A DNA stretch of 42,085 nucleotides from an uncultured bacterium (GCA_964534375.1 CAZHPN010000030.1:1-42085), one strand, 5' to 3'; positions 7,650 to 23,781 are shown, counted from the first letter of the stretch. Program-made: numbers and translations. Notes: generated from the letters alone by a model not told the origin.

Positions 7650-10600
7650 TTAACAGCCGCAGCCGCCCTTCCCGCTCGCGTGCGCGGCCGGCGGCGCGGG
7701 CGGGCTCGCGTCGTCGTTGTCGTTATCGTCATCGTCGTTGTCGTCGTCATTGTCATTATCATCATTATCGTCGTCGTCCGGGCCGGCCTGATGCGGCAAC
7801 GGCCAGCCGTAGTTGCCGCTGTGCTGGGCATCGTGCTGGTACGACGGCCACTGAATGTCGCCGTCGGCGCGGCCTTTCGTTTTCCAGACGAACAGCCCGC
7901 CCTCGCGGGTCGCGGCGGCGACCTCGAGCAGGCCGTCGCCGTCCATGTCGCCGACCACCGCCGTGCCCATCAGCCAGCCGCCGGTGAATTTCGGCCAGCC
8001 GGCCGGCTCGACGCCGAGCGCGTTGTAGGCGTGCAGAAAGTAGCCGCCGGAGCCGGCGATGACCGACGGGCGGCCGTCGCCCGTGATGTCGGCCACGGCG
8101 CTGGATCCGAGAAAGACGTTGTCTTCCAAAATGCGCGGGAAATAGGTCAGGCCGGCCCCGTCGTCGGCGGTCCAGGCCCCGATCAGCATGTCGGCCGGGA
8201 TGCGCAGGCCGGTGATCGCCAATTGAATCCCTTCGCGAATGCCCGGCCCCGCCTCGATGATCGCCAGCCGCCCGTCGCCTTCCAGATCGGCGATGGCCAC
8301 GTTCGCGTCGAGCGGAATCATGATCGGTTCGACGCTGCCGGAATGCGGGCTGCGGATCCACGGGCACATCACGTGGACGATGCTGCCGTCGGCGTCGTAG
8401 ATCACCGGCGGGGCGACGCCGGCGTGCGTCACGATTCGGTCCTTGCCGTCGCCGGCGAAGTCGGCGGTCGTCACCGAGGTCGAGACGCCGGTCGCCAGGA
8501 TCGGCAGCGTGTTCAAGTTGTACCCGTACACGTCGATCGGCCAGCCGGGCAGAAACGGTCCGCCCGCGTGGCCATTGCCGTCCGGCCACAGCGCATAGAC
8601 GCGGCCGGTGTTGCCGTAGACTTCATTCGTGCCGACGAGGATTTCGTAGCGTCCGTCGCCGAACAAATTGGCCGCCGCGGGCGTGGCGGCGATGCGCGCG
8701 CCGTCGTTGCCGCTCGGATCGCGGCAGAGCACGGGCCAGCCGGCGACGGCGCTGCCGTCGCCGCGCCAAGCGTACACGTATTGATCCATCCCGGCGGCGA
8801 CGATGTCGAACTTCCCGTCGCCCTCGAGATCGGTCAGCAGCGGCGCGCCGAAAAATCCGGTGTCGAGGCGCATCGTCGGATCGAGGTGCGCCGGGTCCAT
8901 CGCGACCGGGAAGCCGGCCCGCAGTTCGCCGTCGGCGCGCCACGCGTAGAGTTCGCCGCCCAGCGTGCCGACCACGACGCTCATTTCGCCCGTGCCGTCG
9001 AGATCGCCGACCGCCGGCGCGCCCACCACGCCCTGCCGCCACGCGCTGGGCATCTGGCCGCTGCGATACGCCGCCGAATTGAGATAGTTCGGGCCGGCCG
9101 GGTCCTGGCCCGCGACGAGATCGACGTACTGCGGCCAGCCCGGCATTTCCTGCCCGCCGGCGCGAAACGCGTGAATGGCGCCGTCGCCGGCCGCGACGAT
9201 CAGGGCGAAGACGCCGTCGCCGGCGAGGTCGGCCATCGTCAGCGGCGCTTCGCCCGACGCGCCGAGGTCGATGGGGAAACCGGGAGCCCAATCCGGATCG
9301 CTGTAAAAGAAGAATTGATGATAATACTCGGTCGTATTGCCCCGCGAATCGGTCACCGTCAGCCGCACCAGCGCCGCATGCTCGCCGGTGACGTCGTCCG
9401 ACACCGCCTTCGTCCCCCGCAGACGCGCCGACGCGATCTTGCCGAGCACGCCGTGCACCGGCGCCGTCAGATTTTCGGCGTGGCCGAAGAGCGTCCACGA
9501 ACTCGGGTCGGGGTCGACGCCGCCTTGCGCTTCCAACTTGTAGCTGAACGACGACGCGCGGCGGGCATTCACATAGCCGACGATCGCCGCCGAACCCGAC
9601 GCCGGGTTGACCAGCTCGAACCAGCCCGGCGAGTCGATGTACGCCTCCGGCGGGATCGTCGTCGGCGTCACCATGTCCACCGCCGCGCGCGCGTTGAAGC
9701 GACCGTGGCCGGTGTACTTGTCCCACCCCGGCAGCGTGCGGTACTTCCACCACTCGTATGCCGCCTCGGGCAGATAGACGTCGGTCGCGCTGGCCGCCAC
9801 GATCGAAAACACCTCGTCGGCCGTCAGCGGCGGATTCAGGCCGGTCTCGATGGCGCGCGAGTAAATCAGGCCGAGCCCGCCGCCGACCACCGCCGTCGCG
9901 CACGAGCTGCAACAGCCGCTCGAGCCGTCGACCGTGATTTTCGACCCCCAGTTGGTGCAGGCGTCGAGGGCCATGAAGCTGGTCGTATTCGGCATCGGCA
10001 GGTCGTAGAGGAGATTGTTGACGGTGATCGTGCGCGAGTAGTTCGCCGGGTAATTGTGATGAAACGCATTTTCGTCCGCCGCGCTGGCGGAGATCGCGAC
10101 GTTGTGCGACAGCGCGTATTCCACCGCAGCGCGCGCGAACGGCGTGTTGTTGACCGTCCCGAGCGCCTCGGAAATGACGCTGGCGCCGCTGTCGGTCGCA
10201 AAGACGACGCCCTGCGCGAAGCGGTTGGCGTCGGCCACGAAGGTGTCGCCGACGCGGACCGGCAAAAGCAGGCAGTTCGGGCAGACGCCGGCCCCGCCGA
10301 TGCCGTTGTTGGTCTGCGCGGCGGCGATCTCCGACTCTTGCGTGCCGTGCCCGAAGCGGGTCTCGTCTTCGGGGTAATTCGTGTTGCGGAAGAAATCCCA
10401 GCCGCAGATGTCGTCAATGTAACCGTTGTGGTCGTTGTCGATGCCGTCGGAAAAAATCAGGATCAGGTCGCCGGGGTCGAGGATGCCGTTGCCGTTGGCG
10501 TCGAAGACGCGCGGGTCGTTGGCGTACTGCTGGACGTTGAACACGCCGCTGCCGTTGCAGTCCCAATTCGGGCAAAGCTGGTCGCCGTTCATCGGCTGCG

Positions 10601-10961
10601 GCAACTCGCCTTTGTTCAAATAGTATTTGTTGACCAGGTCGGGGTCTTCGAAATACACGCCGGAGTCGAGGATCGCGATCACCACCTTCGGCGAACCCGT
10701 CGTCACCTGCCACGCCCGATCGGCCGAAACGCCGGAGCCGAGCGCAATCTCGGCCTGCCGAATCGTCGGCAAGCATTGCTCCGGAATATAGGAAAACAGG
10801 TTCCACTGATTCGGGAAATTCGGGTCGTCCGGCGGCTCGAGCTGCGGGTTGTCGTTCGGCCCGTTCGGCCAATTCGGATTGGCCGCCGCCGCCAGTCCGC
10901 AAAGCGCGAGAACAACCGCCGCGGCCAAAACCGCGCAAACAAACCATTGTTGCGTACGCAT
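7650..10961 (-). CDS. Secreted S8 (subtilisin-like) serine peptidase with FG-GAP/VCBS repeats, Asp-rich linker and terminal GGCGC
   Basis: Signal peptide; VVIAILDSG (Asp), GHGT (His), GCCSSCAT (probable Ser); repeated xDLxGDG and GWP/GFP motifs; alternative start at 10976. Confidence 0.85.
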   Translation of the reverse strand: MRTQQWFVCAVLAAAVVLALCGLAAAANPNWPNGPNDNPQLEPPDDPNFPNQWNLFSYIPEQCLPTIRQAEIALGSGVSADRAWQVTTGSPKVVIAILDSGVYFEDPDLVNKYYLNKGELPQPMNGDQLCPNWDCNGSGVFNVQQYANDPRVFDANGNGILDPGDLILIFSDGIDNDHNGYIDDICGWDFFRNTNYPEDETRFGHGTQESEIAAAQTNNGIGGAGVCPNCLLLPVRVGDTFVADANRFAQGVVFATDSGASVISEALGTVNNTPFARAAVEYALSHNVAISASAADENAFHHNYPANYSRTITVNNLLYDLPMPNTTSFMALDACTNWGSKITVDGSSGCCSSCATAVVGGGLGLIYSRAIETGLNPPLTADEVFSIVAASATDVYLPEAAYEWWKYRTLPGWDKYTGHGRFNARAAVDMVTPTTIPPEAYIDSPGWFELVNPASGSAAIVGYVNARRASSFSYKLEAQGGVDPDPSSWTLFGHAENLTAPVHGVLGKIASARLRGTKAVSDDVTGEHAALVRLTVTDSRGNTTEYYHQFFFYSDPDWAPGFPIDLGASGEAPLTMADLAGDGVFALIVAAGDGAIHAFRAGGQEMPGWPQYVDLVAGQDPAGPNYLNSAAYRSGQMPSAWRQGVVGAPAVGDLDGTGEMSVVVGTLGGELYAWRADGELRAGFPVAMDPAHLDPTMRLDTGFFGAPLLTDLEGDGKFDIVAAGMDQYVYAWRGDGSAVAGWPVLCRDPSGNDGARIAATPAAANLFGDGRYEILVGTNEVYGNTGRVYALWPDGNGHAGGPFLPGWPIDVYGYNLNTLPILATGVSTSVTTADFAGDGKDRIVTHAGVAPPVIYDADGSIVHVMCPWIRSPHSGSVEPIMIPLDANVAIADLEGDGRLAIIEAGPGIREGIQLAITGLRIPADMLIGAWTADDGAGLTYFPRILEDNVFLGSSAVADITGDGRPSVIAGSGGYFLHAYNALGVEPAGWPKFTGGWLMGTAVVGDMDGDGLLEVAAATREGGLFVWKTKGRADGDIQWPSYQHDAQHSGNYGWPLPHQAGPDDDDNDDNDNDDDNDDDDNDNDDASPPAPPAAHASGKGGCGC

Positions 10962-11101
10962 GCGATGCTCCCCCATTGCATGAGCAAACAGCAGATGTGT
11001 TTACTGGAAATATCCCGCGATGTCCAGCGGCAGGCGAGGCTGTGATTTTTTGCGCCGAAGCGTCTTGAGGCTGATGGAAGCCTGCTTCCCGGCGGACAGG
11101 G

Positions 11102-11220
11102 CGCGGAAGGAACTGCTGCGCGACCTGCCGGCCATCGTGGCGCGGGAAGCTGAAATAACCATCCTTCTGTTTCTTCTGCGGATGCTCGCCGAAGTGAAGA
11201 GGTGGGCGGCGGCGGATTAG
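11102..11220 (+). repeat. Dispersed repeat R, copy 1 (no terminator part)
   Basis: Encodes RKELLRDLPAIVAREAEITILLFLLRMLAEVKRWAAAD*; homologous to copies at 11838, 13795 and 17207. Confidence 0.85.
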
Positions 11221-11474
11221 TCTCCGGCGCGAAGCCCGACCGGCGACGGCGTCTGCTGCCGGAACTCTTCCCGCGGCAACCCGGATTGTCGGATGATGGA
11301 TTGCAGGGTTCCGACGCGTAATTCTTTGTGATTTGGAATGGGAATCGTGACCGCGCCTTCGTCCTAGATTTTTTGCATGAGGATGTGGCTGCCGCGGCGC
11401 CGCACTTCGCGAAAACCATGACGCGCCAGAAGCTTGCAAAGCTCTTCGCCGGAAAAGACGCGAAGCCTAACCAA
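11217..11474 (-). pseudogene. hicA: HicA-family toxin interrupted by an in-frame TAG
   Basis: TTG start with GGAG RBS overlapping the hicB end; MVRLRVFSGEELCKLLARHGFREVRRRGSHILMQKI*DEGAVTIPIPNHKELRVGTLQSIIRQSGLPREEF; TAG at 11364-11366. Confidence 0.88.
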
Positions 11475-11682
11475 CGGCGATCTCCAGTTGCGTAACGAAA
11501 ACCTCGCGATGCAAACGCCGTTCGAGTTCGGACGGCGGCGCCGCCTCGAAGAAAAGCTCCAGCGCCTCGCGTAGGTTATCGCGCGCCTCCTCGATCGTGC
11601 CGCCCTGGCTGGCGATATCCAATTCCGGGCACAACGCCACGTAGCCGTCGCCCTCTTGCTCAATGATTGCGGTCAATCTCAT
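11467..11682 (-). CDS. hicB: HicB-family antitoxin (short form)
   Basis: MRLTAIIEQEGDGYVALCPELDIASQGGTIEEARDNLREALELF; GGAGG RBS before ATG 11682. Confidence 0.92.
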   Translation of the reverse strand: MRLTAIIEQEGDGYVALCPELDIASQGGTIEEARDNLREALELFFEAAPPSELERRLHREVFVTQLEIAVG

Positions 11683-11837
11683 GGCACACCTCCCAACGGC
11701 CCAGCGCCTACCGTAGGGCGACCGGCCCGCCGCGTCAAGAAGCCGCAACCTGTCGATCCTGCCCCAATTACGGCTTTGCTGCTCTCCTCAGTTCGCGGCC
11801 ACCGGGCGGCGTCCACTGGTGCAGATGCCTGAGCGAC

Positions 11838-11862
11838 AAAAAAGGGGCCAGCGCTTCGGCCC
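11838..11862 (-). terminator. Rho-independent terminator within repeat R
   Basis: Minus strand GGGCC-GAAGCGCT-GGCCC followed by C and TTTTTT. Confidence 0.65.
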
Positions 11863-11989
11863 AGCGGCGAACCGGCGTCTGCCGCAGGAACTGTCGCACG
11901 ATCCGCTGCCGCTGGTGGCGCGGGAAGATGAAATGCCCATCCGGCTGCGGCTGGGGATGCTCGCCGAAATGAGGAAGTGGGCGGATTGA
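11838..11989 (+). repeat. Dispersed repeat R, copy 2 (includes minus-strand terminator hairpin)
   Basis: AAAAAAGGGGCCAGCGCTTCGGCCCAGCGGCG followed by a frame encoding QELSHDPLPLVAREDEMPIRLRLGMLAEMRKWAD*. Confidence 0.9.
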
Positions 11990-12068
11990 ATCGCCGCGCA
12001 CGATTCGCGTTGCGATCACGTGGGCTGCGGGTGATCGCGGGGGAATAACTCCCTCACCCGCGCCGCGG

Positions 12069-13634
12069 TCACTGCGGCGGGCCGTAGTGGAGGATCGCGC
12101 CGCCGTCGCCGACCGCGAACACATCCGAGGCGGAACTGCCCCAAACGCCGTTCAAGTTTGCCGCCGCGCCGTTCGGCATCGGCGTCCACGCCACGCCGTC
12201 GTAATGCAAGATCACGGGGCCGGCGGCGTTCGCGCCCACGGCGAACACATCCGTTGCGGAACTTCCCCAAACGCCGTTCAAGTTCGCTGCGACGCCGGGC
12301 GGCATCCGTGACCACGAGGAGCCGTCGTAGTGCACCGTCGTACTGCCGTAGTTGCCCACGGCGAACACGTCCGACGCAGAGCTTCCCCAAACCGCTCGCA
12401 AGTCCCACGTCGTGCCCGCCATCGGCGACCACGACGAACCGTCGAAATGCATAATCACCGGTCCCGAGAAGCCAAAGTTACCCGGATTCGTGTTGCTTCC
12501 CACCGCGAACACGTCGGACGCGGAACTTCCCCAGACGCCGTACATCTCCGCCGCAGCCTGGGTCATCATCGCCGACCACGAGGAACCGTCGTAGTTCACG
12601 ATTACGCCGCCGTCGTAAGGCGTGGACAGCCCGACCGCGAATACATTCGAGGAGGAAGTCCCCCAAACGCCGTTCAACCCCTCTCCCCAAACGCTCGCCA
12701 TCGCCGACCACGAGGAACCGTCATAGCGCAAGATCAGATTCGTTCCCGTCGAAGTCCCCGCGGCAAACACATCCGACGAAGAGCTTCCCCAGACGGCGGC
12801 CAACGCCGCCGCCGCACTGTTCCACATTGGCGACCACGAAGAACCGTCGTAGTGCAAGATCACGCTCGTTGCCACGGCGAATACGTCCGAGGAAGAGCTT
12901 CCCCAAATGCCGGTCAAATCCACGGTCGTCCCGCTCGTCATCGGCAACCAGGAAGGCGCGCTGTCGTCGTTGTCGTCGTCATCGTCGTCGATCGTCCGTA
13001 CGCAGCGTACGCAGAAGCTGAACATTGCGGAAGTCCCGCCGACGCTGCCGGTCGTGAAATCGACGAACCAGGCCCAGAGTGATTCGCCGCCCCAAAGAAA
13101 AGACGAGGACGACCAATAAATATTCACGTTGCCCGTGACTTCGGGCGGCCAATAGGCGCCGCCCGGCCCCGGACCGCCGTGAGTGGTGCCGCTTCCCCGG
13201 AGCAAACTGGCGAGCTCGTTGATGTCCGGCAACTGCCAATCGCTGTAACCGTCCCAAGTCAGGCCCGCACAGTAACCAAACCCACCCCCCGGGTCATAGA
13301 GGTTTGCCCCGACCGCGGCGCCGTTCTGCCACATCAAGCCCGTTGTGGGGTCGGTCCAAACCGTTTCAACAGTGTCGTTGTCGTCGTTGTCGTCGTTGTC
13401 GTCATTGTCGTTGTCGTTGTCGTCGTTGTCGTTGTCGTTGTCGTCGTTGTCGTTGTCGTCATTGTCGTCGTCGTCCGCGGCCGGCTTCGTGTCGTCGTCG
13501 GCCGCAGTGTGATCGTCGTCGCCCGCGTGGTGATCCGGCGCGCAGGCGGCCAGGTATCCAAGCAGGGCTAGAACGAACAGAAAGGCCACGAAGCCGGACG
13601 GGCAGCGCCGCAAAACCACAGTTCCATTCGTCAT
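12069..13634 (-). CDS. Lipoprotein: Asp-rich linker, DUF1566 (Lcl/CLec) domain, seven VWGSSxxDVFAVG repeats (probable beta-propeller)
   Basis: Lipobox LAAC; WTDPTTGLMWQ...DWQLPDINEL...YWSSS...VRCVR; seven WG(S/T)S..(D/N)VFA repeats with ILHYDG. Confidence 0.85.
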   Translation of the reverse strand: MTNGTVVLRRCPSGFVAFLFVLALLGYLAACAPDHHAGDDDHTAADDDTKPAADDDDNDDNDNDDNDNDNDDNDNDNDDNDDNDDNDTVETVWTDPTTGLMWQNGAAVGANLYDPGGGFGYCAGLTWDGYSDWQLPDINELASLLRGSGTTHGGPGPGGAYWPPEVTGNVNIYWSSSSFLWGGESLWAWFVDFTTGSVGGTSAMFSFCVRCVRTIDDDDDDNDDSAPSWLPMTSGTTVDLTGIWGSSSSDVFAVATSVILHYDGSSWSPMWNSAAAALAAVWGSSSSDVFAAGTSTGTNLILRYDGSSWSAMASVWGEGLNGVWGTSSSNVFAVGLSTPYDGGVIVNYDGSSWSAMMTQAAAEMYGVWGSSASDVFAVGSNTNPGNFGFSGPVIMHFDGSSWSPMAGTTWDLRAVWGSSASDVFAVGNYGSTTVHYDGSSWSRMPPGVAANLNGVWGSSATDVFAVGANAAGPVILHYDGVAWTPMPNGAAANLNGVWGSSASDVFAVGDGGAILHYGPPQ

Positions 13635-13794
13635 GACGGACTCCCACGGGCGATCATCGTCCGTTTTTTCGTTTTCGTTTTGGTCGCCAGCCGCAACATT
13701 CGGCGAGGCGACGTTTGGCGATGGTCCGCCCGCTCGACGGCGAAGTCAACGGCGGCGGCGCGACCGGTGTGCGGCGGGTCCACAAGGCGAAAAG

Positions 13795-13954
13795 AAAAAA
13801 AAGAGGCAGCACTTCGGCCCCAGCGGCGAGCCGGCGTCTGCGGAAGACACTGCGGCATGTCCTGCTGGCCCTGGTGGCGCGAGAAGACGAAAAAACGATC
13901 CGGCTGCTGCTGGGAATGCTCTCCGAAGTCAGGAAGTGGGCGGAGGGGGATTAG
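13795..13954 (+). repeat. Dispersed repeat R, copy 3
   Basis: A-run, GAGGCAGCACTTCGGCCCCAGCGGCG, then LRKTLRHVLLALVAREDEKTIRLLLGMLSEVRKWAEGD*. Confidence 0.9.
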
Positions 13955-14118
13955 CTTCCGAGCCGGTGGCTCAACGCAAAGAAATCGTTGTCCTTGGGTA
14001 CGGCATATTTTTTTCTTGTGGGCAGATTCGTTCAAATCTTACAGAATTTCCCCGTCTCAGATCATGAACGTTGGGAGCGCGGACATACGCACCAAAGCGA
14101 ACCTGTATGCGGCAAAAC

Positions 14119-14904
14119 CTAATTTACGAGATCGTCGACAATTTCGAGTATCCGGCAATCGCCGCGACCATTGCCGCGGCAGTTGTTGTTTTCCAAGATC
14201 AGGCGCGAGGGCGATATATAACTGATGCCGTAGCCTTCGTTGTAGTTGCATTCGTTGCCGAGCGCCTTGCCGCCTTTTGCCTGGAATGAATATCGTATTC
14301 CGTCCAGCCGATTTCGTTCGCAGAAATTCTTTTCCAGTTCCGGGACGGCGTTGTAATTCACTTCTATGCCGTATCTTTCGTTGCGGCAGCAAATGTTGTC
14401 CCTCGCCGTCCCGCCGGCCTCTTGTTCATAAAGTATGGCAGTCCGATTGTGCAGCAGCTTGTTGTTCACCAGTTCCGGTCGAGCCCGATCCGTGACCGTT
14501 ATTGCCTTATCCGACCGGCGAACATCGCAATCGGCAACTGTTCCTGTCAGCGAACCGCCGAGCACTAAGGTGCGAGCGCCCTCGATTATCCCGTTCAAAT
14601 AAAGGGGATGGGTCCTCTCATAAAAGTTGCAGCCGGATATGTCGATGCGCCCGTTCCTAATCTCGACCAGGGCCCCGGCGATCCCCTCCGGACGGCTGAT
14701 GTTGACATCACGGATGACAAGCTGATCCTGACTCTTCAATTCAAAGCACATGGCGCAATCCAAAAGCGATTTCCCGCGCACGCCGATCAATGAAAGCGGC
14801 TTGTCGATCGTCAAGCGCTCATTGATCGAGTAGTGCCCTTGCAAATGGATTATCGTGTCAGGCTTGGCCTCTATTATCTGCCTGCGAAGATACTCGCCCA
14901 ACAA
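14119..14904 (-). CDS. Right-handed parallel beta-helix repeat protein
   Basis: LTIDKPLSLIG and repeated N.C..N...GI units; TTG start uncertain; lower GC than flanks. Confidence 0.75.
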   Translation of the reverse strand: MLGEYLRRQIIEAKPDTIIHLQGHYSINERLTIDKPLSLIGVRGKSLLDCAMCFELKSQDQLVIRDVNISRPEGIAGALVEIRNGRIDISGCNFYERTHPLYLNGIIEGARTLVLGGSLTGTVADCDVRRSDKAITVTDRARPELVNNKLLHNRTAILYEQEAGGTARDNICCRNERYGIEVNYNAVPELEKNFCERNRLDGIRYSFQAKGGKALGNECNYNEGYGISYISPSRLILENNNCRGNGRGDCRILEIVDDLVN

Positions 14905-14930
14905 TTTCTCGGCCCCTTCCGGCGCCCTGG

Positions 14931-14990
14931 TTCAGCCTGAAATGGGCTGAAGTCTTTTTTTGCTATGCAGAGGCCCATGCCTCCGCACCG
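14931..14990 (-). promoter_or_regulatory. Conserved leader motif B, copy a (structured RNA or promoter)
   Basis: Near-identical to 19684-19745; both end about 27-31 nt upstream of minus-strand starts. Confidence 0.55.
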
Positions 14991-15051
14991 GCATTTTTCG
15001 TTCTTCGAGCATGGGCCCAGCAGAGCCCGCCGCCGGTTCGCCCGGCGACCA

Positions 15052-15477
15052 TCAGTCCACCACCGCCGGAACGTTCGTGTCAAGACCGTGGCGGCGGTGC
15101 CGACGAACTTCCCGCGCCGCTCTTCCGCCGGCGCCCCGACGAACGTTCGCGCCTCGCGATCGCGGAAGTGCGGGGGAAATAGCGCTGGTCGTTTCTGTCA
15201 TTGCAAATAACGTTGTGAGTGAGCCGATGCGCCACGTGGTAGTTGTCTTGCTGGCCGCCGCCTGCTCGCGAGCCTTGCTGGCCTTGAGCAGCTTGGCGAT
15301 GGCGGGGCCGAGGACTTTGGCTCGCTCTGGAAAGCGGCACAAGCCTTCGCGCAGCAGCGGCACGAGCGCGTAGTCGCCGGCGGCAAGGATTTCGGCCAAA
15401 GCTGCGGTAAACACTTCAGCGTCGGCAGAGAAAAAGCGCGTCAAGTTCCGCGAGGTCCGACAGCGTCATTGGAGACA
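15052..15477 (-). pseudogene. Hypothetical helical protein with a +1 frameshift in a T5 run
   Basis: MSPMTLSDLAELDALF continues as SADAEVFTAALAEILAAG if one T is removed near 15431-15435; AAGGAG/GGGG RBS upstream. Confidence 0.45.
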
Positions 15478-15639
15478 TTTCCCCGTGCTCCTTTTTGAAT
15501 AGCGGGCAACGGAGGCGTCGGCGATGAGGATGGCGGAGTAGAAACAAGCCGATCCGGCATCCTGTTGGGCGAGGACGAACGAAACGCAGGCGATGAGCGC
15601 GCCATATGCCGGTAGCGAGAGAAAGCTCTTGTTGCGCAT
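15466..15639 (-). CDS. Small hydrophobic hypothetical protein (57 aa)
   Basis: Strong GGAGGAGG RBS before ATG 15639; MRNKSFLSLPAYGALIACVSFVLA... Confidence 0.5.
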   Translation of the reverse strand: MRNKSFLSLPAYGALIACVSFVLAQQDAGSACFYSAILIADASVARYSKRSTGKCLQ

Positions 15640-15660
15640 GGCCAACCTCCTCCAAGGCAA

Positions 15661-15710
15661 GACCGTCCCGCCTTCCGTTGAAAGCTCTGAAGAGGCGATT
15701 ATTGATTTCA
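15661..15710 (-). promoter_or_regulatory. Conserved upstream motif C, copy a
   Basis: Reverse complement aligns ungapped with 17381-17430 at 37/50 positions; each precedes a gene start. Confidence 0.5.
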
Positions 15711-16048
15711 TCGTCATGCCGCACGAATCCGGCTGTCAAGCGCGACGCCGCGGCCTATTCCAGGAACGCGGCGGCGGCACAACGCAGCACCGTGTTGCCG
15801 TCGCGCCAACGGCTGACGCGCCCCGCGCATTGCAGCACACCCTCATTGGGACTTTCGATCACATTGGCCGTAATCGTCGGGTCTGTTGGCGCTCGTCGTT
15901 GGTGGCGGTGAACACGATCTCGGAAAAGTATTTTGGCCCGACCATGCCCTCGATTCACCACGCCACGCGGGGCTTCTTATTTTTTTCGCCGTCTGCTAAG
16001 ATAAAAATCGGGCTGCCCGAAAGGCGGCCCGGTGGGGCACGGACGAAC

Positions 16049-16189
16049 ATGAGCATTCTCTTTTTTATGAAAAACGCGTTTTGGTTTTGGCTCGCTGGGC
16101 AGGTAGTAACCTTTTTGATAAGTGAAGACTTAGGAGCCCTCTATTTTCTGATCAGCGTGACCGTCCTTGGCTATCTTCTACTTTTTTAA
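16049..16189 (+). CDS. Small two-TM membrane peptide (46 aa)
   Basis: MSILFFMKNAFWFWLAGQVVTFLISEDLGALYFLISVTVLGYLLLF; AT-rich; start uncertain. Confidence 0.4.
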   Translation: MSILFFMKNAFWFWLAGQVVTFLISEDLGALYFLISVTVLGYLLLF

Positions 16190-16313
16190 CCTTCCGGTGT
16201 GATGCCTCGATCGAAAACGGACTGTCAAGCGGTTTGACTGTTTCGAGTTATTCCGCTTGAATTGCGGTCTCCTCTCCACGCCGTCATGGCGCACAATCAC
16301 CAAAGCACCAATT

Positions 16314-17111
16314 TCACGGTCGGCTACCCCGCACACAACGCGCATGGCTGTCGACGGGGCTGTAGCCGACGAAGCCGGAGTCGAAATCGACGCCCCACAC
16401 TCCGGCCCGGTCCGAAACCGACGAGGACGAATAATACCAGGCACCTTCCCCCGTAAGCTCGGATGGCCAATACTCGCCGCCCACAGCAGGACCGCCATCG
16501 GCTGAACAACCGCCGCACCCGATTTTTTTTGCGAAGGACATGCAATCGTTGTTCAAACACGAGTCCGTTACGCCACAGGAACCGCCCTCCTTTGTCGCCG
16601 GACAGCCTCGAATCAAGCTCCGAAGCTCGGAGATCGTCGGTAGACGCCAGTCATTGTAGCCACCCAATCTCAGGCCCACGCAATGCGATTTCGCCGCCGA
16701 CCAACTCATCGCTCCGCCGGTCTGTACCACCTGCCACATCAAATCCGATTGCGGGTCCGTCCATGTGCCATGAGGCGAGCGCGCGCGCGGAAGTGATTTG
16801 GCCTTGGTCGTCGGTGCTGACGCGCCGCCGCATTGCAAACGCGCCAGTAAATCGGCCGCTTTCTTGGCATAGGGCGAATTCGGGTACGCCGCTATCACGC
16901 CTTTCAGCACATCGATGGCTGCGGGCACGTCGCCTTCCACAACCAATGCGGCCCCACGCTCGTAAAGCATCTTCGCCGGGTCGGTGGGCGCTGCGGGCGG
17001 CGGCGGGCTCGACCCTTCGTCGGCTGCGCGCGCCCGGAACCGCGCGCCGAGCACGAGCGTCATCGCCGAAACGACCAAAAGCGCGACCAGCAAAGTTCTG
17101 TACTTATTCAT
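16314..17111 (-). CDS. Secreted protein with a TPR-like helix pair and C-terminal DUF1566 (Lcl/CLec) domain
   Basis: Signal peptide, GGGAGG RBS; LYERG...VIAAYPNSPYAKKA; WTDPQSDLMWQ, DWRLPTISELRSL, ARCVR. Confidence 0.85.
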   Translation of the reverse strand: MNKYRTLLVALLVVSAMTLVLGARFRARAADEGSSPPPPAAPTDPAKMLYERGAALVVEGDVPAAIDVLKGVIAAYPNSPYAKKAADLLARLQCGGASAPTTKAKSLPRARSPHGTWTDPQSDLMWQVVQTGGAMSWSAAKSHCVGLRLGGYNDWRLPTISELRSLIRGCPATKEGGSCGVTDSCLNNDCMSFAKKIGCGGCSADGGPAVGGEYWPSELTGEGAWYYSSSSVSDRAGVWGVDFDSGFVGYSPVDSHARCVRGSRP

Positions 17112-17206
17112 TACGGTCCTCCCGTTTGTATCGGCTCCCCATGGAAATGCGCTTGTATCGTCCCGCTCTCAATTCGGGTTGTCAACAAGTCTTACAAAGC
17201 CAATTC

Positions 17207-17346
17207 CTTCGGCCCAGCGGCGAGCATGGCATCCGCGGAACGAACTGCTGCACGACCTGCTGGCCCTGGTGGCGCGGGAGGATGAGAAGAACGTCCGGCT
17301 GCTGCGGGGGACGCTCGCCGAAGTGAAGAGGTGGGGGGGGGGGGAC
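17207..17346 (+). repeat. Dispersed repeat R, copy 4 (ends in a G12 tract)
   Basis: CTTCGGCCCAGCGGCG then PRNELLHDLLALVAREDEKNVRLLRGTLAEVKRWGGG. Confidence 0.9.
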
Positions 17347-17380
17347 GACCGTTGGCAGCCAGGACCGGGTTGCGTAAGTG

Positions 17381-17430
17381 TGAAGTCAACAACCGCCTTT
17401 CCAGAACTTTCAACTGAGTTTGGGACAGGC
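17381..17430 (+). promoter_or_regulatory. Conserved upstream motif C, copy b
   Basis: TGAAGTCAACAACCGCCTTTCCAGAACTTTCAAC..., homologous to 15661-15710 (minus strand). Confidence 0.5.
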
Positions 17431-17439
17431 TCGGGCTCG

Positions 17440-18610
17440 ATGGAAATGACGCCGCCGGATGTCGATGCGATCTTATCGCGAAGAAAACGCGAAATCGATA
17501 CTCTGGTGCGGGATTTTTTGCATGCGATCAGGACCGGCCAAAGGCCGGTGATTCCGTCGCAGCGTAACAAGGCCCGGAAAGTCGCATGGGAGTTGGCCGA
17601 CGCGCGTCGGGCGATGGCCGCGGAAGTCGAGGTCTTGGCGCAATTTGGCTCGGCACGGCGAATTCAGGGACGACGAAGACCGCCAACGCCTCACCCGACT
17701 TGCGCTGGCGGTTTATTGGCTGGGTGCCGTCGAACGCTGGACGCGATTTGCGCTGCGGTCGAACAACGCCGGCCTCGTTTCCTTTGTGCAAGTCACTGGG
17801 CAGGAGATCGCCGAAGTCCTATCCGAGGGCTATTACCATGGACCAACGGACTCCATCGTCAAGGCATTCCTCGATAGAGAACCTGTATTTAAGGCCTGCG
17901 CTATCGCCTGTGGCGAAGAACTGTTGACGTTTGAGCAGGCGTTCAAACAAAATAAAGGGAAAGTCGCTGCCATGGTTGGTTTAACACGCTCGCCGAGGGC
18001 CGAAGAAAAACCGGCGAACCGCACCGACGCGCCGTGCCCCGCAAACCAAATGCAGGAATCCGAATCGCGGTCTGATTTCGCGCCCAGCAAGACGACTGTA
18101 AAACCGGCGAAAGATTTGCCTAGAATAGATAAAAGGTTGCCGCGGGGAGAAAATTCATTATTGTCTTTGCCGGCGATCTCGGGCTCAAAGGCCTTCGATA
18201 TTAGGATCTCTGCAAGCGGTGACTCCACGACTCTTACTGTCCTTTTCCCCGGTGAAGAAATAATCGCCGAAGCGGGAACGGATTTGGGCGTCAAGTTGAT
18301 ATCTCCCAGCGGAACGGTTCGCGGCTATGTCATCCCCTATTTGGGGCGCTACGGAAAGCCCGCCGAATACCATTTGGCGACTCCTTACTCGGGGACCATC
18401 TTGACCATTAAGAGAACCGACGAAGGGGACGTGATTTTGAATGTCGAAGGCGCCGATTTGACAACGGCGACACGCGAAATTGATGGCGCAAACCCCTATC
18501 TCACAATTTACAAATCGAATGGGAAAGTAATCGGATATGGATTTGATGATTTTTTGGATATTATAAACGGAAAATTTTGCGATGTATTCCTCCAGTTGGA
18601 AAAAAGATGA
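17440..18610 (+). pseudogene. Hypothetical protein, apparently frameshifted near 17644
   Basis: MEMTPPDVDAIL...EVLAQ joins LARHGEFRDDEDRQ...QLEKR* (ORF 17645-18610) if one T of CAATTTGG is removed; lower GC. Confidence 0.5.
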
Positions 18611-18798
18611 CGCATTTGCTTTTCGGCTGACCCGCGTGGCCGCTGTCGCCGTTTGACGATGGTTCATTATCAACGCCGACATTTCGTTTCTTGCTGAATT
18701 CTTCACCGCGGCCTTCATGTGAACCGGCAGTTCCAGCGCCTTTTCATAAATCAGCAAATATTTCGAAGAATCACACCGCCAATTTGACGGTCGGCCGA

Positions 18799-19653
18799 TC
18801 AGCGCACACAGCGCACGGCAACGGCATAGGGGGGGACGAGGCAGACGAGGACCCCGCCGGAGGAGAAAGAGACGATCCACCCTGAGTCGTTCTTGCCACG
18901 GTCCGGGTCCGATGACGACCAATATTCGTTTACTTCCCCCGAAAGCTCCGGCGGCCAATACGCGCCGTCCGAACCAGGACCGCCGTGATTCGAACATCCA
19001 CCGCATAGATTCACGTCCCAGCAAGAGGCAGTCAGGCACGAATCCGTCAGTTCACACGACCCGCCTTTTTGTGTCGCCGGGCAACCTCGGATCAAGCTCC
19101 GAAGCTGGGAGATCGTCGGCAAGCGCCAGTCGTTGAAACCACCAAGGCTCAGGCTCTCGCAATGCAATACGGCGTCCGTCCGCGTCATTCTCGCGCCCGT
19201 CGGATTAACCTGCCACATCAAGCCCGACTGCGGGTCCTTCCACGTGCCGCTCGGCGCAGGCGCAGGCGTCGCGGCGGTCAGCGACGGCTCCTCACAGATG
19301 CTGTCCCGGACGTGGCAATAGAGGCCGTCTCTACAGTCACTGTTTCGCGCACACACCGCCCCGGCGAGCCCTCGCACGCGGCACTTGGCGTTCCGAAAGT
19401 CCGCGCGGTTGCACACCAACCCTTGATCTGAACCACAGTCCCCGTCTGCGCGACACTTCGTGCCCTCGGTCGGCACATGGCATTCCGGCGGATCATAGGC
19501 CTGGTTGCAGACGCTTGCGCTCCGTACACATAGATCGCCGTTTCTACATTCCTTCCCCTCGGAACGAAGCGGTCGATGATGGCAACACGCGGAACAACAA
19601 ATGCCGACGACGATCAAGACCATCAGAAGCCAACGGCCACCCGGATTTTCCAT
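18799..19653 (-). CDS. Secreted/lipoprotein with Cys-rich N-terminal modules and C-terminal DUF1566 (Lcl/CLec) domain
   Basis: GAGG RBS; hydrophobic leader; C..D.DC...L.C units; WKDPQSGLMWQ, DWRLPTISQLRSL, YWSSS, VRCVR*. Confidence 0.85.
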   Translation of the reverse strand: MENPGGRWLLMVLIVVGICCSACCHHRPLRSEGKECRNGDLCVRSASVCNQAYDPPECHVPTEGTKCRADGDCGSDQGLVCNRADFRNAKCRVRGLAGAVCARNSDCRDGLYCHVRDSICEEPSLTAATPAPAPSGTWKDPQSGLMWQVNPTGARMTRTDAVLHCESLSLGGFNDWRLPTISQLRSLIRGCPATQKGGSCELTDSCLTASCWDVNLCGGCSNHGGPGSDGAYWPPELSGEVNEYWSSSDPDRGKNDSGWIVSFSSGGVLVCLVPPYAVAVRCVR

Positions 19654-19683
19654 CTGCGCATCCTCGTCGGAAAACTGTCCTGA

Positions 19684-19745
19684 TTCAACCTGGAAATGGA
19701 CTGAAGCCGTTTTTTGCAAGTGCAGAGGCCCATTCCTCCGCACCG
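19684..19745 (-). promoter_or_regulatory. Conserved leader motif B, copy b
   Basis: Near-identical to 14931-14990. Confidence 0.55.
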
Positions 19746-19920
19746 CCGCACTAGGTTTCGAAGATTCCGAGTTGTTCGATCTCTATTGTCGGCGGAAGTT
19801 TCCAATCTCCGCTTCTGATTGTCAATGGCATGGCACGCCGGTCATAATTCCCGATCACATCTTCGCCGTGCTCAATCCCGACCAGTCGGCGGTGTCCACA
19901 CGTCTGGACACCTGGGCGGT

Positions 19921-19953
19921 AAAAAAGGGGCCATCGCTTCGGCCCCAGCGGCG
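19921..19953 (-). terminator. Rho-independent terminator; partial copy 5 of repeat R
   Basis: Minus strand GGGGCC-GAAGCGAT-GGCCCC-TTTTTT directly after the stop of ORF 19955-20221. Confidence 0.75.
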
Positions 19954-20152
19954 GTCACGCCTTCGGCATGTCCGCCCACAGTTCAACTGCACCTTCCCGC
20001 TTCAACCGCCGGTAGCCTCCGGTTTCCTCCGCGGACAGCCGCCGGAGTTCGTACCGCTCGCGCTCCGGCATGTGCGGCTCCCAGCCGACAAAGGCGAACA
20101 CCACGCCGGTGATTTCGACGAACGGCGGCATGGTCGGTGGGAGAGGTGAATG

Positions 20153-20203
20153 GCCCTCACCCGCCGCGCTGCGCTCGGCGACCTCTCCCGGTGGGAGAGG
20201 TGA
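20153..20203. repeat. REP-like palindromic element
   Basis: CCCTCACCCGCCGCGCTGCGCTCGGCGACCTCTCCCGGTGGGAGAGG; related to 29023-29106. Confidence 0.6.
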
Positions 20204-20217
20204 ATGCGCCGGATACC

Positions 20218-20370
20218 TCACGGCAATTGGGCGGGGTCGAAATTCCAGGCATAGGCGTGGCGGCGGCGATCGAGCAGCGCGTAGTGGCCGCGATCGAGGA
20301 TGTGCTTCATCGCGTGTTTCGGCGTCCAGCCGAGCAGCAGGGTCGCCAGCGCCGCCAGCGCCATGCCGTG
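20218..20370 (-). repeat. Orphan duplicate of the last 50 codons plus stop of the histidine phosphatase gene (direct repeat of 22056-22208)
   Basis: HGMALAALATLLLGWTPKHAMKHILDRGHYALLDRRRHAYAWNFDPAQLP* versus ...LLDRTRNAYAWNFDPAKLP*. Confidence 0.95.
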
Positions 20371-20446
20371 GGCCCGGAGGCGCTTGCCAACCAAAGCAAA
20401 GTCATGGAATCTAAGTCTCGCTCAAGTCGGGAAGGATCGGGCGCCG

Positions 20447-21988
20447 ATGAACGACAAGGTTAAATTCGGTTGGGTGCCAGGGCCGTTGGCGCCCAAGGAA
20501 TTGGTCCAAGAATGCTCCGATCTCTATTCCGCGCACTACGGCACATGGAGCGACAGCGCTCCTCATTCTCGCGGACAGCGCGTCCGCCTTTCGGCCCAGC
20601 GAATACGCGATGAATGGCTGGACGAAGATTCCCGGATCGCGACCGCCAAACTGAATGGGGCCCTAATTGGCTATGCCATCGTGATACCGGCGAAGTTGTG
20701 CGGGAACGGCATTGTCTCTTGGGTCACGCAACTTGTGGTTCACAAGGACTATCGGCAGCGCGATATCGGCAAAACGCTGTTGTTCTCTGTCTGGGGTTTT
20801 TCCACGCATTTTTGTTGGGGCTTGATAACGGCGAGCCCTTACGCCATCCGCGCCTTGGAGAAGGCAACTCGCCGACGATGCGTTTCCGAGCGCATCGCCA
20901 CGCACAAGGGCAGGCTCCAAAAACTTGGCGCGAGAAAAATTCCATACGTGGCCCAAAGCGAAGCGCTGGATGTTTCCCGTTCGACTTCGAAAATAAACAC
21001 CCGTTTTTTTGTCGATCACGGCGACCTCGAAGCAACCGTGGCCGGCGTCGTGGCGAAAGACAAGCCGTGGAATCTCGGCATGATCGACGAAGGATGGGAG
21101 TGGTTCGCGTTTACGTTTCACGATCAGGACCAAATCAGCCTGGATTCGAACGAAATCGCCGGCATGCTGGCCGCCTCGGACCAAATCACCAAAGACGCTT
21201 ATTCCAGAATGCCAATCGGCGAGTCGCAACCTTGGGTTCGATTCGCCGATAAGGAGGCTGCGTTCGTCGTCAGCAGTTGCGATCTGCGGACCAGCGATCG
21301 TGTTCTCGATCTGGGATGCGGGAGCGGGAGGCATGCCATACGCTTGGCTGAATTGGGGTTGGCAGTCACCGGGGTTGATTACGTTGGCTCATTCATCGAC
21401 GCGGCGCGCCAGGATGCGTCGAAGAAACAATCGATCCATGCGGAATTTGTCGAGGCCGACTGCCGCGATGTCGTTCTCCGGTCCGAATTTGACGCGGTCA
21501 TTTGCCTTTACGACGTGGTCGGAACCTACGCGGAGAATGACGAAAACCGCAAGATTCTTCAGAACCTGGCCCGCCACCTGAAACGCGGCGGCAAAGCGCT
21601 GATTTCCGTCATGAATTTTGAATTGACGGCGCGGCGGGCGACGAATTTTTTCAACCTCGGTGAGCAGCCCGACAAATTGCTCGAACTGCCCGCAAGTCCA
21701 ACGATGGAAACAACGGGCGATGTCTTCGATCCCAGATATTACCTGATTGAAGAGGAAACGAAGGTTGTCTACCGCAAGGAGCAATTCTCGGCAGGGCAAT
21801 CTCTTCCGGTTGAATTGATCGTTCGGGATCGTCGTTTTCGAACCGCCGAAATCGAAGAAATGTGCCGCGACGCAGGGCTGGATGTCGTTTGGTCGCGGTT
21901 CGTCCGCGCCGGGCATTGGGATGAGCCGCTGACCAACGACGACGATCACGCCAAAGAAATACTGATTTTGTGCAACAAATCTCTGTAA
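20447..21988 (+). CDS. Fused GNAT acetyltransferase / class I SAM-dependent methyltransferase
   Basis: WVTQLVVHKDYRQRDIGKTLL (GNAT motif A); VLDLGCGSGRH, VTGVD, FDAVICLYDV; GAAGGA upstream of ATG 20447. Confidence 0.85.
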   Translation: MNDKVKFGWVPGPLAPKELVQECSDLYSAHYGTWSDSAPHSRGQRVRLSAQRIRDEWLDEDSRIATAKLNGALIGYAIVIPAKLCGNGIVSWVTQLVVHKDYRQRDIGKTLLFSVWGFSTHFCWGLITASPYAIRALEKATRRRCVSERIATHKGRLQKLGARKIPYVAQSEALDVSRSTSKINTRFFVDHGDLEATVAGVVAKDKPWNLGMIDEGWEWFAFTFHDQDQISLDSNEIAGMLAASDQITKDAYSRMPIGESQPWVRFADKEAAFVVSSCDLRTSDRVLDLGCGSGRHAIRLAELGLAVTGVDYVGSFIDAARQDASKKQSIHAEFVEADCRDVVLRSEFDAVICLYDVVGTYAENDENRKILQNLARHLKRGGKALISVMNFELTARRATNFFNLGEQPDKLLELPASPTMETTGDVFDPRYYLIEEETKVVYRKEQFSAGQSLPVELIVRDRRFRTAEIEEMCRDAGLDVVWSRFVRAGHWDEPLTNDDDHAKEILILCNKSL

Positions 21989-22688: not shown

Positions 22689-23781
22689 AGAGACGTTCCG
22701 GGTTGCCCGCCCAATAGCCGAAAATCTGCGGGCTGCCGGGCCGGAAATCTTCGAGGAAGCCGACGTTCTCGAACGACACGCCGCCGTACACCGGCGCGTG
22801 CGATTTCCAGAATTTCGCGCGGCCGTTGACGAGCCCTTGCAGCGTGGCGTCGAACGTGCCGGCCGGCCGGCGATAATATTGGGTCAGCGCCTGCGGCTCG
22901 GGGTAGCCCGGAACGTCCCACGGCCGCGCTTCGTCCGGGCGGGCCGCAAAGACGACGTCGCCGGCGCGATTGCGCGCCAACTCGGCCAGACCGAACAATT
23001 TCGGCGGCGCAAATTCCCAGCCGTTGAAATGCGGCCAGAGGCCCTTCGCGTTGACGACGCCGCCCTTGAGATACAGGTCGCGCAGCCGCGTCAGGTTGCC
23101 CCAGGTGCCGGAGAGAAAACAGGTCGCCAACGCCGGGCTGCCCGGTTCGGTGAACGTCTGGAACATCACTTCGTTGGGCCGGTTTTCGCGAATGGTGACG
23201 AGCAGGTAAATCCGGGCGTCGTTGGGAAAGCGTTCGCAGCGGAAGACGAGCGACATTTCGCGCACGCCGTCCGGCCCGCGGCGCACTTCGGCCACCGTGT
23301 GCAGCGGCGGCGGCAGGCGCGACTCCCAATGCGCGATGTCGGTGTGAAACTCCGGCGGGTACGCTTTGATGATAATGCCGGGCCGGTGGTCGCGCGGGCT
23401 GTCGTCGAGTTCGCTGGCGCCGCGGCGGCCGTCGCGCGTGACCGGGCTGAGCGCGATGAAATTGATGAAATAGACGCGCCCGGCGTCTTCGTAGCCGATG
23501 CGCAGCAGCCCGCGCGGCCCGCCCGCTTCGTTGGCGCCGAAACCGACCGCGGCCGGATACAGGCCCACCATGATGCCGTCGCGGACGCCCCAGATCGGCT
23601 CGTCGGCGTCGTTGCGCGGCCCGAAAAACGGCGGCGAAATCTCGGCCGGCGGCGCCGTCGGCTCGATCGGCGCCTGCATCGCCCGCGCGGCGCAACCCGT
23701 CGTGGCGACGATGACGGCCAGCGCCAGCAGCGCGCCCCGGCGGCCCCAGCCCCGCGGCGCACTATCTCTATATTTCTTCAC
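22681..23781 (-). CDS. Hypothetical lipoprotein
   Basis: Long ORF; hydrophobic leader ending TTGC; probable GTG start at 23781 just after the heptamer repeats. Confidence 0.7.
   Translation of the reverse strand: MKKYRDSAPRGWGRRGALLALAVIVATTGCAARAMQAPIEPTAPPAEISPPFFGPRNDADEPIWGVRDGIMVGLYPAAVGFGANEAGGPRGLLRIGYEDAGRVYFINFIALSPVTRDGRRGASELDDSPRDHRPGIIIKAYPPEFHTDIAHWESRLPPPLHTVAEVRRGPDGVREMSLVFRCERFPNDARIYLLVTIRENRPNEVMFQTFTEPGSPALATCFLSGTWGNLTRLRDLYLKGGVVNAKGLWPHFNGWEFAPPKLFGLAELARNRAGDVVFAARPDEARPWDVPGYPEPQALTQYYRRPAGTFDATLQGLVNGRAKFWKSHAPVYGGVSFENVGFLEDFRPGSPQIFGYWAGNPERLFD

Follow-up and report, generated by a model that had tools for sequence, protein, structure and literature searches.

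How does a run of unrelated genes come to be set apart by diverged copies of a single repeat? The question is raised by a stretch of DNA from an uncultured bacterium (GCA_964534375.1, CAZHPN010000030.1:1-42085). The stretch, referred to below as the window, is 42,085 nucleotides (nt) long and constitutes the whole of contig C30 of a 6.3-Mb assembly. Between positions 11102 and 19953, it holds hicBA, a gene for a beta-helix protein, and genes for proteins with an Lcl_C (DUF1566) domain, punctuated by a repeat that combines a terminator-like part (T) with the 3′ end of a former coding sequence (X). An initial reading of the sequence (the original prediction) took the region for an integron-like cassette array. 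We find that the repeat looks like a fossil of gene accretion at a worn-out mobile element and not like part of a working integron. The history that we favor, with modest confidence, is that of a now-frozen accretion array: cargo inserted at the junction between an XRE regulator gene and a small convergent gene, here called D, one illegitimate duplication created a T|X joint, and homologous exchange acted thereafter.

Extent and distribution of the repeat

The repeat family is real, being recovered both by a repeat search of the window and by a MAFFT alignment of five stretches. Together with a DNA profile, these confirmed the diverged, single-orientation repeat that had been described, comprising four long copies and one terminator-only copy, all on the plus strand:

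c1, about 11070-11220, plus strand: without the terminator, extending further into the parent gene
c2, 11838-11992, plus strand: long copy
c3, 13796-13954, plus strand: long copy
c4, 17202-17349, plus strand: long copy, terminator reduced to its 3′ half
c5, 19876-19964, plus strand: terminator and about 45 nt of left flank common with c2, no peptide part

The copies are 75 to 85% alike. Their spacing relative to the genes also agreed with the earlier description: c1, c2, and c3 lie 0 bp (the stop codons of c1 and hicA overlap), 77 bp, and 165 bp downstream of minus-strand genes, and c1 to c4 lie 91 to 162 bp upstream of the next start codon. A stop codon was reported for three of the long copies; c1, c2, and c3 indeed have one at the conserved place, which c4 lacks.

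When the four long copies were made into a DNA profile and searched against the whole genome, the window copies matched with E values of 1.9e-33 to 4.9e-45, and just three more copies were recovered outside the window. One is on the minus strand of contig C91 (3147..3019), and two are on contig C84 (C84a, 21222-21383; C84b, 22816-22955). An additional fragment of the regulator, on contig C267, consists of the helix-turn-helix (HTH) only. With only three further convincing copies genome-wide, the repeat is neither a chance match nor a genome-wide repetitive extragenic palindrome or miniature inverted-repeat transposable element, the alternative that the original prediction had itself named. A profile match on contig C42 (E = 2e-4) was taken as chance, as it sits in a long open frame (residues ...LRDLLAARVAE...). 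No tRNAs were found in the window, and an Rfam search of the window gave two subthreshold matches, both unrelated to the repeats.

Parent gene of the X part

By sequence comparison, the X part is the last ∼38 codons of a 116-amino-acid (aa) XRE/controller-like HTH regulator. The C91 copy, the longest, also retains part of the helix-turn-helix (...NITSPKVVKLATSLAVTPAELMAACFPADK...). A protein search with its peptide returned a parent protein at full length, P0002 (116 aa), whose precomputed Pfam matches are to HTH_3/HTH_31, as well as several public gene calls of 62 to 79 aa that are truncated remnants. When P0002 was compared with the genome by tblastn, it matched C91 (1.3e-29), c1 (6.7e-15), c3 (3e-12), c4 (1.1e-11), and c2 (8.7e-8), and a DNA profile of four full-length XRE genes matched the window copies with E values of 4e-17 to 2.6e-10. 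The suggestion that the repeat includes the displaced 3′ end of an XRE-like regulator is thus upheld by a parent protein and by full-length genes in two genomes and on metagenome contigs. Tail-bearing matches occur in 5 of 60 other genomes, at full length in G013 and G014, which belong to the same class as the source, and partially in G007, G003, and G006; the metagenome loci L039 to L042 also carry full-length genes. In this genome (94% complete), no full-length XRE copy was found. The window copies begin at nt 204 to 240 of the 351-nt profile, and an intact HTH with a start codon was not seen in any of them. The open reading frames (ORFs) over c1, c2, and c3 have no Pfam match. The X parts of the window are as follows:

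10987..11069, plus strand: possible decayed XRE body remnant (residues ∼31-63)
11070..11220, plus strand: X1, without T, profile nt 204-337, adjoining further sequence of the XRE gene
11864..11992, plus strand: X2, profile nt 240-341, TGA stop, several Leu-to-Pro changes
13830..13954, plus strand: X3, profile nt 237-342, TAG stop
17202..17349, plus strand: X4 (profile nt 233-334, no stop at the conserved place) with a remnant of T4 (3′ half of the hairpin only)

The body remnant is weakly indicated, as the tblastn match of P0002 reaches position 10987 (48% identity, one gap of 10 aa) and homology to the DNA profile is seen only from 11070. The TAG stop of X1 (11218-11220) overlaps the hicA stop codon. 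Public annotation places a 77-aa ORF (P0005) over X3, and X4 is the least decayed copy in the window.

The HTH part of the parent is closest to controllers of restriction-modification systems (PADLOC Control_protein PDLC03665, 1.8e-13, residues 6-71). Over its whole length, the parent has only a weak match (PDC-M69A, 2.2e-4), and a literature search for the term PDC-M69 returned no paper with it. XRE remnants truncated at the 5′ end are also present in other genera, with varied cut points (G003, from residue 64; G006, residues 71-103; L043, from residue 40). The G003 remnant (residues 64-111; L035 9915-10160, G003:C59) immediately follows the terminator of a gene for a C25 (gingipain-type) peptidase, with a Fic gene lying downstream, and XRE-tail remnants recur beside secreted-protein genes. 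In L039 and G007, a full-length or near-full-length XRE gene is divergent beside exported poly-Asp lipoproteins that resemble window cargo. A scan of genome contigs with P0002 gave 13 loci, all generic XRE HTH genes without the tail (Firmicutes-type metagenome-assembled genomes and Morganella), which were set aside; two distant XRE matches without D from a viral scan were likewise dropped.

The T part and the T|X joint

The T part is predicted to be an intrinsic (Rho-independent) terminator that is read on the minus strand, present in four copies that have it fused to X. Besides the T4 remnant, the T parts of the window are as follows:

11780..11870, minus strand: T2, stem-loop at 11862-11845 (6 pairs) and a T run, ∼45 to 60 nt of left flank common with T5
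13727..13830, minus strand: T3, degenerate, ∼70 nt of left flank common with the C84b copy
19863..19954, minus strand: T5, stem at 19946-19927 (7 pairs) followed by TTTTTT, abutting the D stop codon with no X between

T5 and T2 rank first and fourth among the 15 terminator-like sites in 10800-20400 and are the top two of those on the minus strand; the total of 15 is itself not above chance (11.5 ± 3.1). As terminators, T3 and T4 are degenerate. The T flanks fall into two subtypes, with T2 resembling T5 and T3 resembling C84b. The idea that T is a dispersed element was rejected, as blastn-short matches occurred only at the known copies.

Where does the XRE sequence begin in each copy? The T-bearing copies c2, c3, c4, and C84b match the four-gene XRE profile from nt 240, 237, 233, and 236, and the T-less copies c1, C84a, and C91 match it from nt 204, 193, and 135, respectively. 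Since all four T-bearing copies start at nt 233 to 240, they have one common T|X joint: T extends to ...CAGCGGCG, and the XRE sequence follows from about residue 78. The T-less copies continue into the XRE body, and the leftmost copy is T-less in both multicopy loci. At the breakpoint, the XRE sequence (CCCGGCGGACA) bears a short similarity to the right end of T (CCCAGCGGCGA). As for a derivation of T itself from XRE coding sequence, there is a by-eye similarity around GCTTC..GCGG, but nothing before nt 233 is homologous by the DNA profile. In the T-bearing copies c2, c3, c4, and C84b, X is bracketed by an interrupted 11-nt inverted repeat (CTTCGG..CGGCGAGC versus GCTCGCCGAAG), which in c3 pairs 13809-13830 with 13918-13930 and is conserved without covariation. 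The T parts probably still act as terminators, each setting one minus-strand gene apart from the next, and the X parts are probably carried along within 3′ untranslated regions.

Gene D and the XRE/D junction in relatives

The right-hand border of the array is formed by D:

19955..20131, minus strand: D, a conserved small gene of 58 aa

In the window, D comes directly after T5, with its stop codon touching the terminator. Exactly two D genes are present in this genome, one closing the window array on the right and one on C91 (464-643). In relatives (e.g., L039 2064-2246 and L042 1108-1290), D encodes 58 to 60 aa (MPPF[IV]EI..GWEP..ERYELR..ELW) and is convergent to XRE in every full-length locus. 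The XRE and D stop codons overlap (GATTAGTC) in L039, L042, and L034, and the genes of a distant XRE/D pair also adjoin each other in G013:C23. D matched no Pfam family, and protein atlas scores of ≤0.76 gave no lead. It is the last gene of a minus-strand mobile-element module, which in L042 (covering the G013 contig) and L034 (G014) consists of ArdC/IrrE-like, Rad52-like, and PD-(D/E)XK (Cas4-like) genes (by Pfam) followed by D. D may form a functional pair with the XRE-tail regulator. In intact relatives, two tyrosine integrases lie ∼4 to 5.5 kb from XRE. In L034 (2694-4102 and 10602-13148, G014:C56), the intact module is located between BREX genes (brxB and a weak brxA) and two adjacent tyrosine integrases, a setting that suggests a defense-carrying integrative element.

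The XRE/D junction was found in three states. It is empty, with XRE directly against D, in four related sequences (L039/L040, L041/L042 [=G013], L034 [G014], and G013:C23), holds one unit on C91, and holds four units in the window. Behind X, up to ∼20 nt from the 3′ end of D is retained on C91, c2, and C84a. The three states, along with cargo G+C contents of 0.53 to 0.63 against 0.64 for the genome, support the earlier proposal of a gene-accretion hotspot.

Architecture and cargo of the array

Laid out along the window, the array reads as an XRE-body remnant followed by four X–cargo–T units and D. The units are X1–hicBA–T2, X2–Lcl_C/propeller lipoprotein–T3, X3–beta-helix plus Lcl_C protein–T4, and X4–plus-strand ORFan plus Lcl_C protein–T5. 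Their genes are as follows:

11217..11471, minus strand: hicA toxin gene (Pfam HicA_toxin, 2.1e-6), with an in-frame TAG
11467..11682, minus strand: hicB antitoxin gene, 71 aa, intact (weak Pfam UPF0150-like match, 4.6e-4)
12069..13634, minus strand: 521-aa lipoprotein with Lcl_C (DUF1566), a poly-Asp linker, and seven ∼126-bp propeller-type repeats (Pfam and repeat search)
14119..14904, minus strand: right-handed beta-helix protein (Pfam Beta_helix, 4.1e-17), G+C 0.533
16314..17111, minus strand: exported Lcl_C (DUF1566) protein, 265 aa (Pfam Lcl_C, 2.6e-19)
17350..18798, plus strand: low-G+C (0.534) cargo with a 321-aa ORFan at 17645-18610, co-oriented with the XRE remnant
18799..19743, minus strand: Cys-rich exported Lcl_C (DUF1566) protein, 314 aa (Pfam Lcl_C, 4e-16)

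The names originally given to the cargo were correct according to Pfam, with two qualifications: the co-orientation is incomplete, owing to the plus-strand ORF at 17645-18610, and hicA is interrupted. Its in-frame TAG follows ...GSHILMQKI at 11366-11368 (a position derived by hand from the translation), the HicA_toxin profile match before it covers positions 1 to 27 of 58, so that an intact HicA was not found, and the reading frame continues to the antisense of the X1 stop region. hicA is therefore probably a pseudogene and its toxin inactivated. The sole match of the 321-aa ORF among 5.8 billion clustered proteins was itself, 14905-16313 contains no confident gene, and PHROGs and PADLOC returned nothing for the cargo ORFs of unknown kind.

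The cargo differs in composition, with G+C contents of 0.533 for the beta-helix gene, 0.534 for 17350-18798, 0.604 for hicBA, and 0.61 to 0.63 for the Lcl_C genes, compared to 0.642 for the genome. Lcl_C matches number 79 in the genome. The two C-terminal Lcl_C genes of the array are 72% alike, in that domain only, versus 68 to 70% to dispersed paralogues. As these two genes are mutually no closer than they are to dispersed paralogues, the cargo units are not simple tandem duplicates. Lcl_C and FGE-sulfatase genes are typical targets of diversity-generating retroelements. Such an element was considered and rejected, since the window ORFs include no reverse transcriptase (Pfam) and the repeat search listed no pair that would link the Lcl_C 3′ ends to a noncoding template.

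Two other loci have related arrangements. The C91 locus has one unit, consisting of a body remnant, X, a 719-aa NERD-like gene, and a different terminator, followed by D and a metallophosphoesterase gene. The 719-aa protein (C91 715-2874; L044 6370-8529), encoded between the XRE remnant and D, has a weak NERD/PD-(D/E)xK signature (Pfam, 0.002), and the gene may be a defense gene under an XRE/controller-type regulator. The C84 locus has at least two units: a T-less X, a propeller lipoprotein, and T–X, after which the contig ends. The propeller half of the 521-aa lipoprotein gene in the window and both repeats flanking that gene are paralogous to the unit on C84. The homology runs through X, a spacer, the propeller half, and then a leader, T, and X, ending at the outer repeat ends.

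Divergence of the copies

The T-bearing copies mutually differ at 21 to 28 of 99 nt. Among them, the ratio of nonsynonymous to synonymous substitution rates (dN/dS) ranges from 0.53 to 5.3 (six pairs, four of which are within 0.5 to 1.1); among full-length XRE genes, it is 0.08 to 0.14. The T-bearing copies have thus diverged neutrally (dN/dS about 1) since the joint arose. The c3-C91 (0.24) and c4-C91 (0.33) ratios retain a trace of the coding past, and this trace is what the original prediction had picked up. The distances between copies are star-like, with C91 nearest the center (by arithmetic on pairwise counts). Helix-breaking Leu-to-Pro changes or an indel mark c1, c2, and C84b, and the stop codon has been lost in C84b and c4. 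It had been argued from synonymous differences between c3 and c4 that the sequence once evolved as coding. This was half right: the c3-c4 differences at codon positions 1/2/3 are 3/8/10, with a dN/dS of 0.53. Differences occur over all codon positions in c1-c2 (8/10/6) and c2-c4 (6/10/5).

Recombination machinery and mobility

No recombinase was found among the window ORFs (Pfam), and no integrase lies next to the array. The genome has seven tyrosine-recombinase (PF00589) matches and one serine-recombinase match, none of them on C30, C84, C91, or C267. The R′ core of an attC site is GTTRRRY. The window contains 37 matches to this motif (48 are expected by chance), none of which is inside a repeat copy. 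Nor is there a fold signal: DNA fold z scores are −0.81 to +0.31 for both strands of c2, c3, and c4, the RNAalifold covariation term is unfavorable, with 1 compensatory pair of 27, and no Rfam match was obtained at E values of ≤0.1. The notion of an integron-like, active cassette system is consequently not supported, given that the three copy-bearing contigs lack a recombinase and the repeat lacks an attC core, a hairpin, and covariation.

We compared contigs of four wetland sequencing runs with the region (word shares of 0.98, 0.92, 0.52, and 0.19). Contigs of three runs (shares of 0.98, 0.92, and 0.52, the first possibly being the source run) bridge every repeat in the same order, and no part of the array is missing from the contigs of the four runs. 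Among the 15 joints listed of 201 found in these runs, none is an alternative joint at a repeat, and all 15 lie inside the internal repeats of the Lcl_C/propeller gene. Metagenome contigs from the same set of samples (loci L044, L045, and L046) belong to one population with the genome (99.97 to 100% identity) and add no variation. At 13303-13669, the word depth of the run contigs is 233 to 3,805 versus 5 to 15 elsewhere. This stretch is a poly-Asp coding repeat (GTCGTT/GTCGTC) that is common to many other genes and organisms in the samples; poly-Asp linkers are seen in lipoproteins.

Proposed history and alternatives

In the history that we favor, cargo with its own terminator T would have been inserted between XRE and D, a state that survives on C91. 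A single illegitimate tandem duplication of X–cargo–T would then have created the T|X joint common to the four copies. One such duplication would explain the single joint, the T-less leftmost copy, and the last T touching D without any further events. Before the copies had diverged, the units would have been multiplied and their cargo swapped by unequal crossing-over and homologous exchange within X and T, and the same phase of exchange would have seeded the unit at the C84 locus. Finally, the XRE gene would have died, leaving the copies to drift apart neutrally in a frozen array. Both the order of these events and the use of homologous recombination are what we infer.

Several points weigh against this history. 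The c3-C91 pair has a dN/dS of 0.24, and X3 has ∼7 synonymous and ∼7 nonsynonymous private changes (counted by hand from the alignment), which hint at selection or, alternatively, gene conversion by a live allele. The similarity between CCCAGCGGCGA and CCCGGCGGACA could be a site-specific recombination core instead of microhomology. Among the copies, 35 of 55 site pairs fail the four-gamete test, with a permutation test similar to the pairwise homoplasy index not being significant (P = 0.26). The four units have different cargo, so that simple duplication needs later exchange to explain them. The order of events is drawn from one genome, and gain or loss at repeat boundaries would become observable with a genus-level relative. 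The run data, moreover, are contigs, which drop rare variants, making the absence of excision joints weak evidence.

Could the T|X joint be an attachment site? An active or recent site-specific platform would insert X–cargo–T circles at the XRE tail by means of a recombinase acting in trans, for example, the tyrosine integrases of an intact XRE/D element, and the locus would then be an integron analogue that does without attC sites or a series of mini-elements accreted in tandem. Much at the junction would suit such a platform: the breakpoint is fixed in all four T-bearing copies, with the short T-end/XRE similarity at it; the leftmost copy of each locus runs on into the XRE body, as attL would; D-derived nucleotides stand behind X on C91, c2, and C84a; the cargo is unrelated and differs in G+C content; two tyrosine integrases lie near XRE in intact relatives; and empty and single-unit sites exist. 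We nevertheless regard an active or recent platform as rather unlikely. None of the genome's tyrosine or serine recombinases is on C30, C84, C91, or C267, the fold and covariation signals are lacking, the order is the same in three runs, and the last T abuts D without an X, which would need an extra deletion. The extent of divergence among the T-bearing copies, with a dN/dS of about 1, also fits a single old joint better than repeated recent integration. That T|X was the attachment site of a nonintegron platform which captured X–cargo–T circles at the XRE tail or the XRE/D junction via the element's integrases in trans, with the window as an old, stranded array, seems to us very doubtful.

Another explanation makes the X parts passive hitchhikers, each left from a separate mobile element or XRE gene that once regulated the adjoining cargo, so that the array would be a series of independently decayed regulator-target pairs. 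The divergent XRE genes beside exported poly-Asp lipoproteins in L039 and G007 would agree with this, as would the truncated remnants with differing cut points in other genera (G003, G006, and L043). However, independent decay would not yield four copies with the same breakpoint and the same T up to CAGCGGCG, the gap of 91 to 162 bp between X and the start codon leaves too little room for a decayed XRE body of 231 bp and a promoter, and the DNA profile shows no XRE homology upstream of T. Such pairs are distinctly unlikely, the common T|X joint largely refuting them. The copies might also have a present function, as a structured 3′ untranslated region or antisense RNA on the minus strand or as a tail-only peptide, e.g., a dominant-negative partner of XRE. 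In keeping with this, ORFs with start codons cover c1, c2, and c3 (66, 56, and 79 aa), public gene calls exist for c3 (P0005) and the C91 copy (P0001), the c3-C91 and c4-C91 ratios are low, and the 11-nt inverted repeat brackets X in the T-bearing copies. Yet a full-length XRE partner was not found in the genome, c1, c2, and C84b have Leu-to-Pro changes or an indel, C84b and c4 have lost the stop codon, dN/dS is about 1 among the T-bearing copies, and the fold, covariation, and Rfam searches gave no signal. A present function is accordingly highly improbable.

Neighboring genes

To the left, the array is bordered by a gene whose start is ∼95 to 125 bp from X1:

7650..10976, minus strand: secreted subtilase (Peptidase_S8) with FG-GAP repeats, 1,108 aa (PF00082, 4.4e-18; FG-GAP_3, 3.6e-13)

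On the right flank, 20300-21988 (plus strand) encodes a 562-aa GNAT acetyltransferase fused to an S-adenosylmethionine methyltransferase, with a G+C content of 0.565. This gene was found in none of the seven relatives from the family that were searched, and the variable region may reach beyond D. Farther on, 29999-30781 (plus strand) has a strong match to ERG2/sigma-1-receptor-like proteins (PF04622, 4.4e-45), a family discussed mostly in eukaryotes.

Implications

If the accretion history holds, a single convergent-gene junction in a mobile element can turn into a place where genes for surface proteins, toxin-antitoxin systems, and probably defense gather lastingly, and the tail of a dead gene, together with a terminator, can be multiplied to punctuate an array, here in a barely studied uncultured wetland lineage. 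There is also a lesson for annotation: the short ORFs called over these repeats, e.g., the public calls of 77 aa and 62 aa, are pseudogene fragments. Were a site-specific platform at work after all, it would be a second, integron-independent way to build cassette arrays, by which genes for exported lectin-like lipoproteins, toxin-antitoxin pairs, and defense could be gathered and shuffled within the lineage; the present evidence does not show that.

Comparison with known systems

Like integron arrays, the locus is a series of unrelated genes at a single chromosomal spot, most of them in one orientation and two forming a toxin-antitoxin pair, each with a copy of one repeat behind it. Unlike in integrons, no integrase is present on the contig, and the repeat is a gene fragment with a terminator and not an attC site: it has no GTTRRRY core and no hairpin signal, its copies are 75 to 85% alike and decaying neutrally, and one unit has a plus-strand ORF. 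With neither of the two defining integron features found, the array is not a member of the integron family.

The parent of X resembles the controller (C) proteins of restriction-modification systems in being a small XRE-type HTH protein. It differs from them in having an extra, helical C-terminal tail of ∼45 residues, which is the repeated part, and in being convergent to D in a recombination module instead of upstream of a restriction gene. Prophages and satellites have moron or defense hotspots, in which accessory genes with their own terminators occupy a conserved backbone junction. As at these hotspots, cargo differs between elements and relatives have empty sites; here, however, the backbone is nearly gone (X remnants and D), and the junction sequence itself has been multiplied.

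Orphan toxin-immunity modules behind rhs and cdiA are displaced 3′ ends, thought to result from homologous recombination that adds rather than replaces. There, too, serial copies of a conserved gene 3′-end part are each followed by different cargo. The rhs/cdiA modules, however, carry a variable toxin tip and an immunity gene of the same family, whereas the repeated piece in the window is constant and nonfunctional, and the cargo is unrelated to it.

Accretion at the 3′ end of a gene is reported for the Dehalococcoides ssrA islands (PMC3146451) and for PAISt at bacA (PMC4057263). Island accretion at such ends (tRNA, ssrA, and bacA) shares with our array direct repeats that are the 3′ end of one gene and that separate successive foreign blocks. 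As in such islands, the copy on the side of the gene body is contiguous with that body, c1 and C84a extending without T to profile nt 204 and 193. The array differs in that its repeats are ∼115 to 150 bp long and not short att cores, its target is a mobile-element regulator that is dead, with a decayed XRE body, and its blocks are just 0.5 to 3.3 kb, none with an integrase, with four joints of one origin. By analogy, the array would seem most like tandem accretion at a gene 3′ end or the orphan-module arrays of rhs and cdiA.

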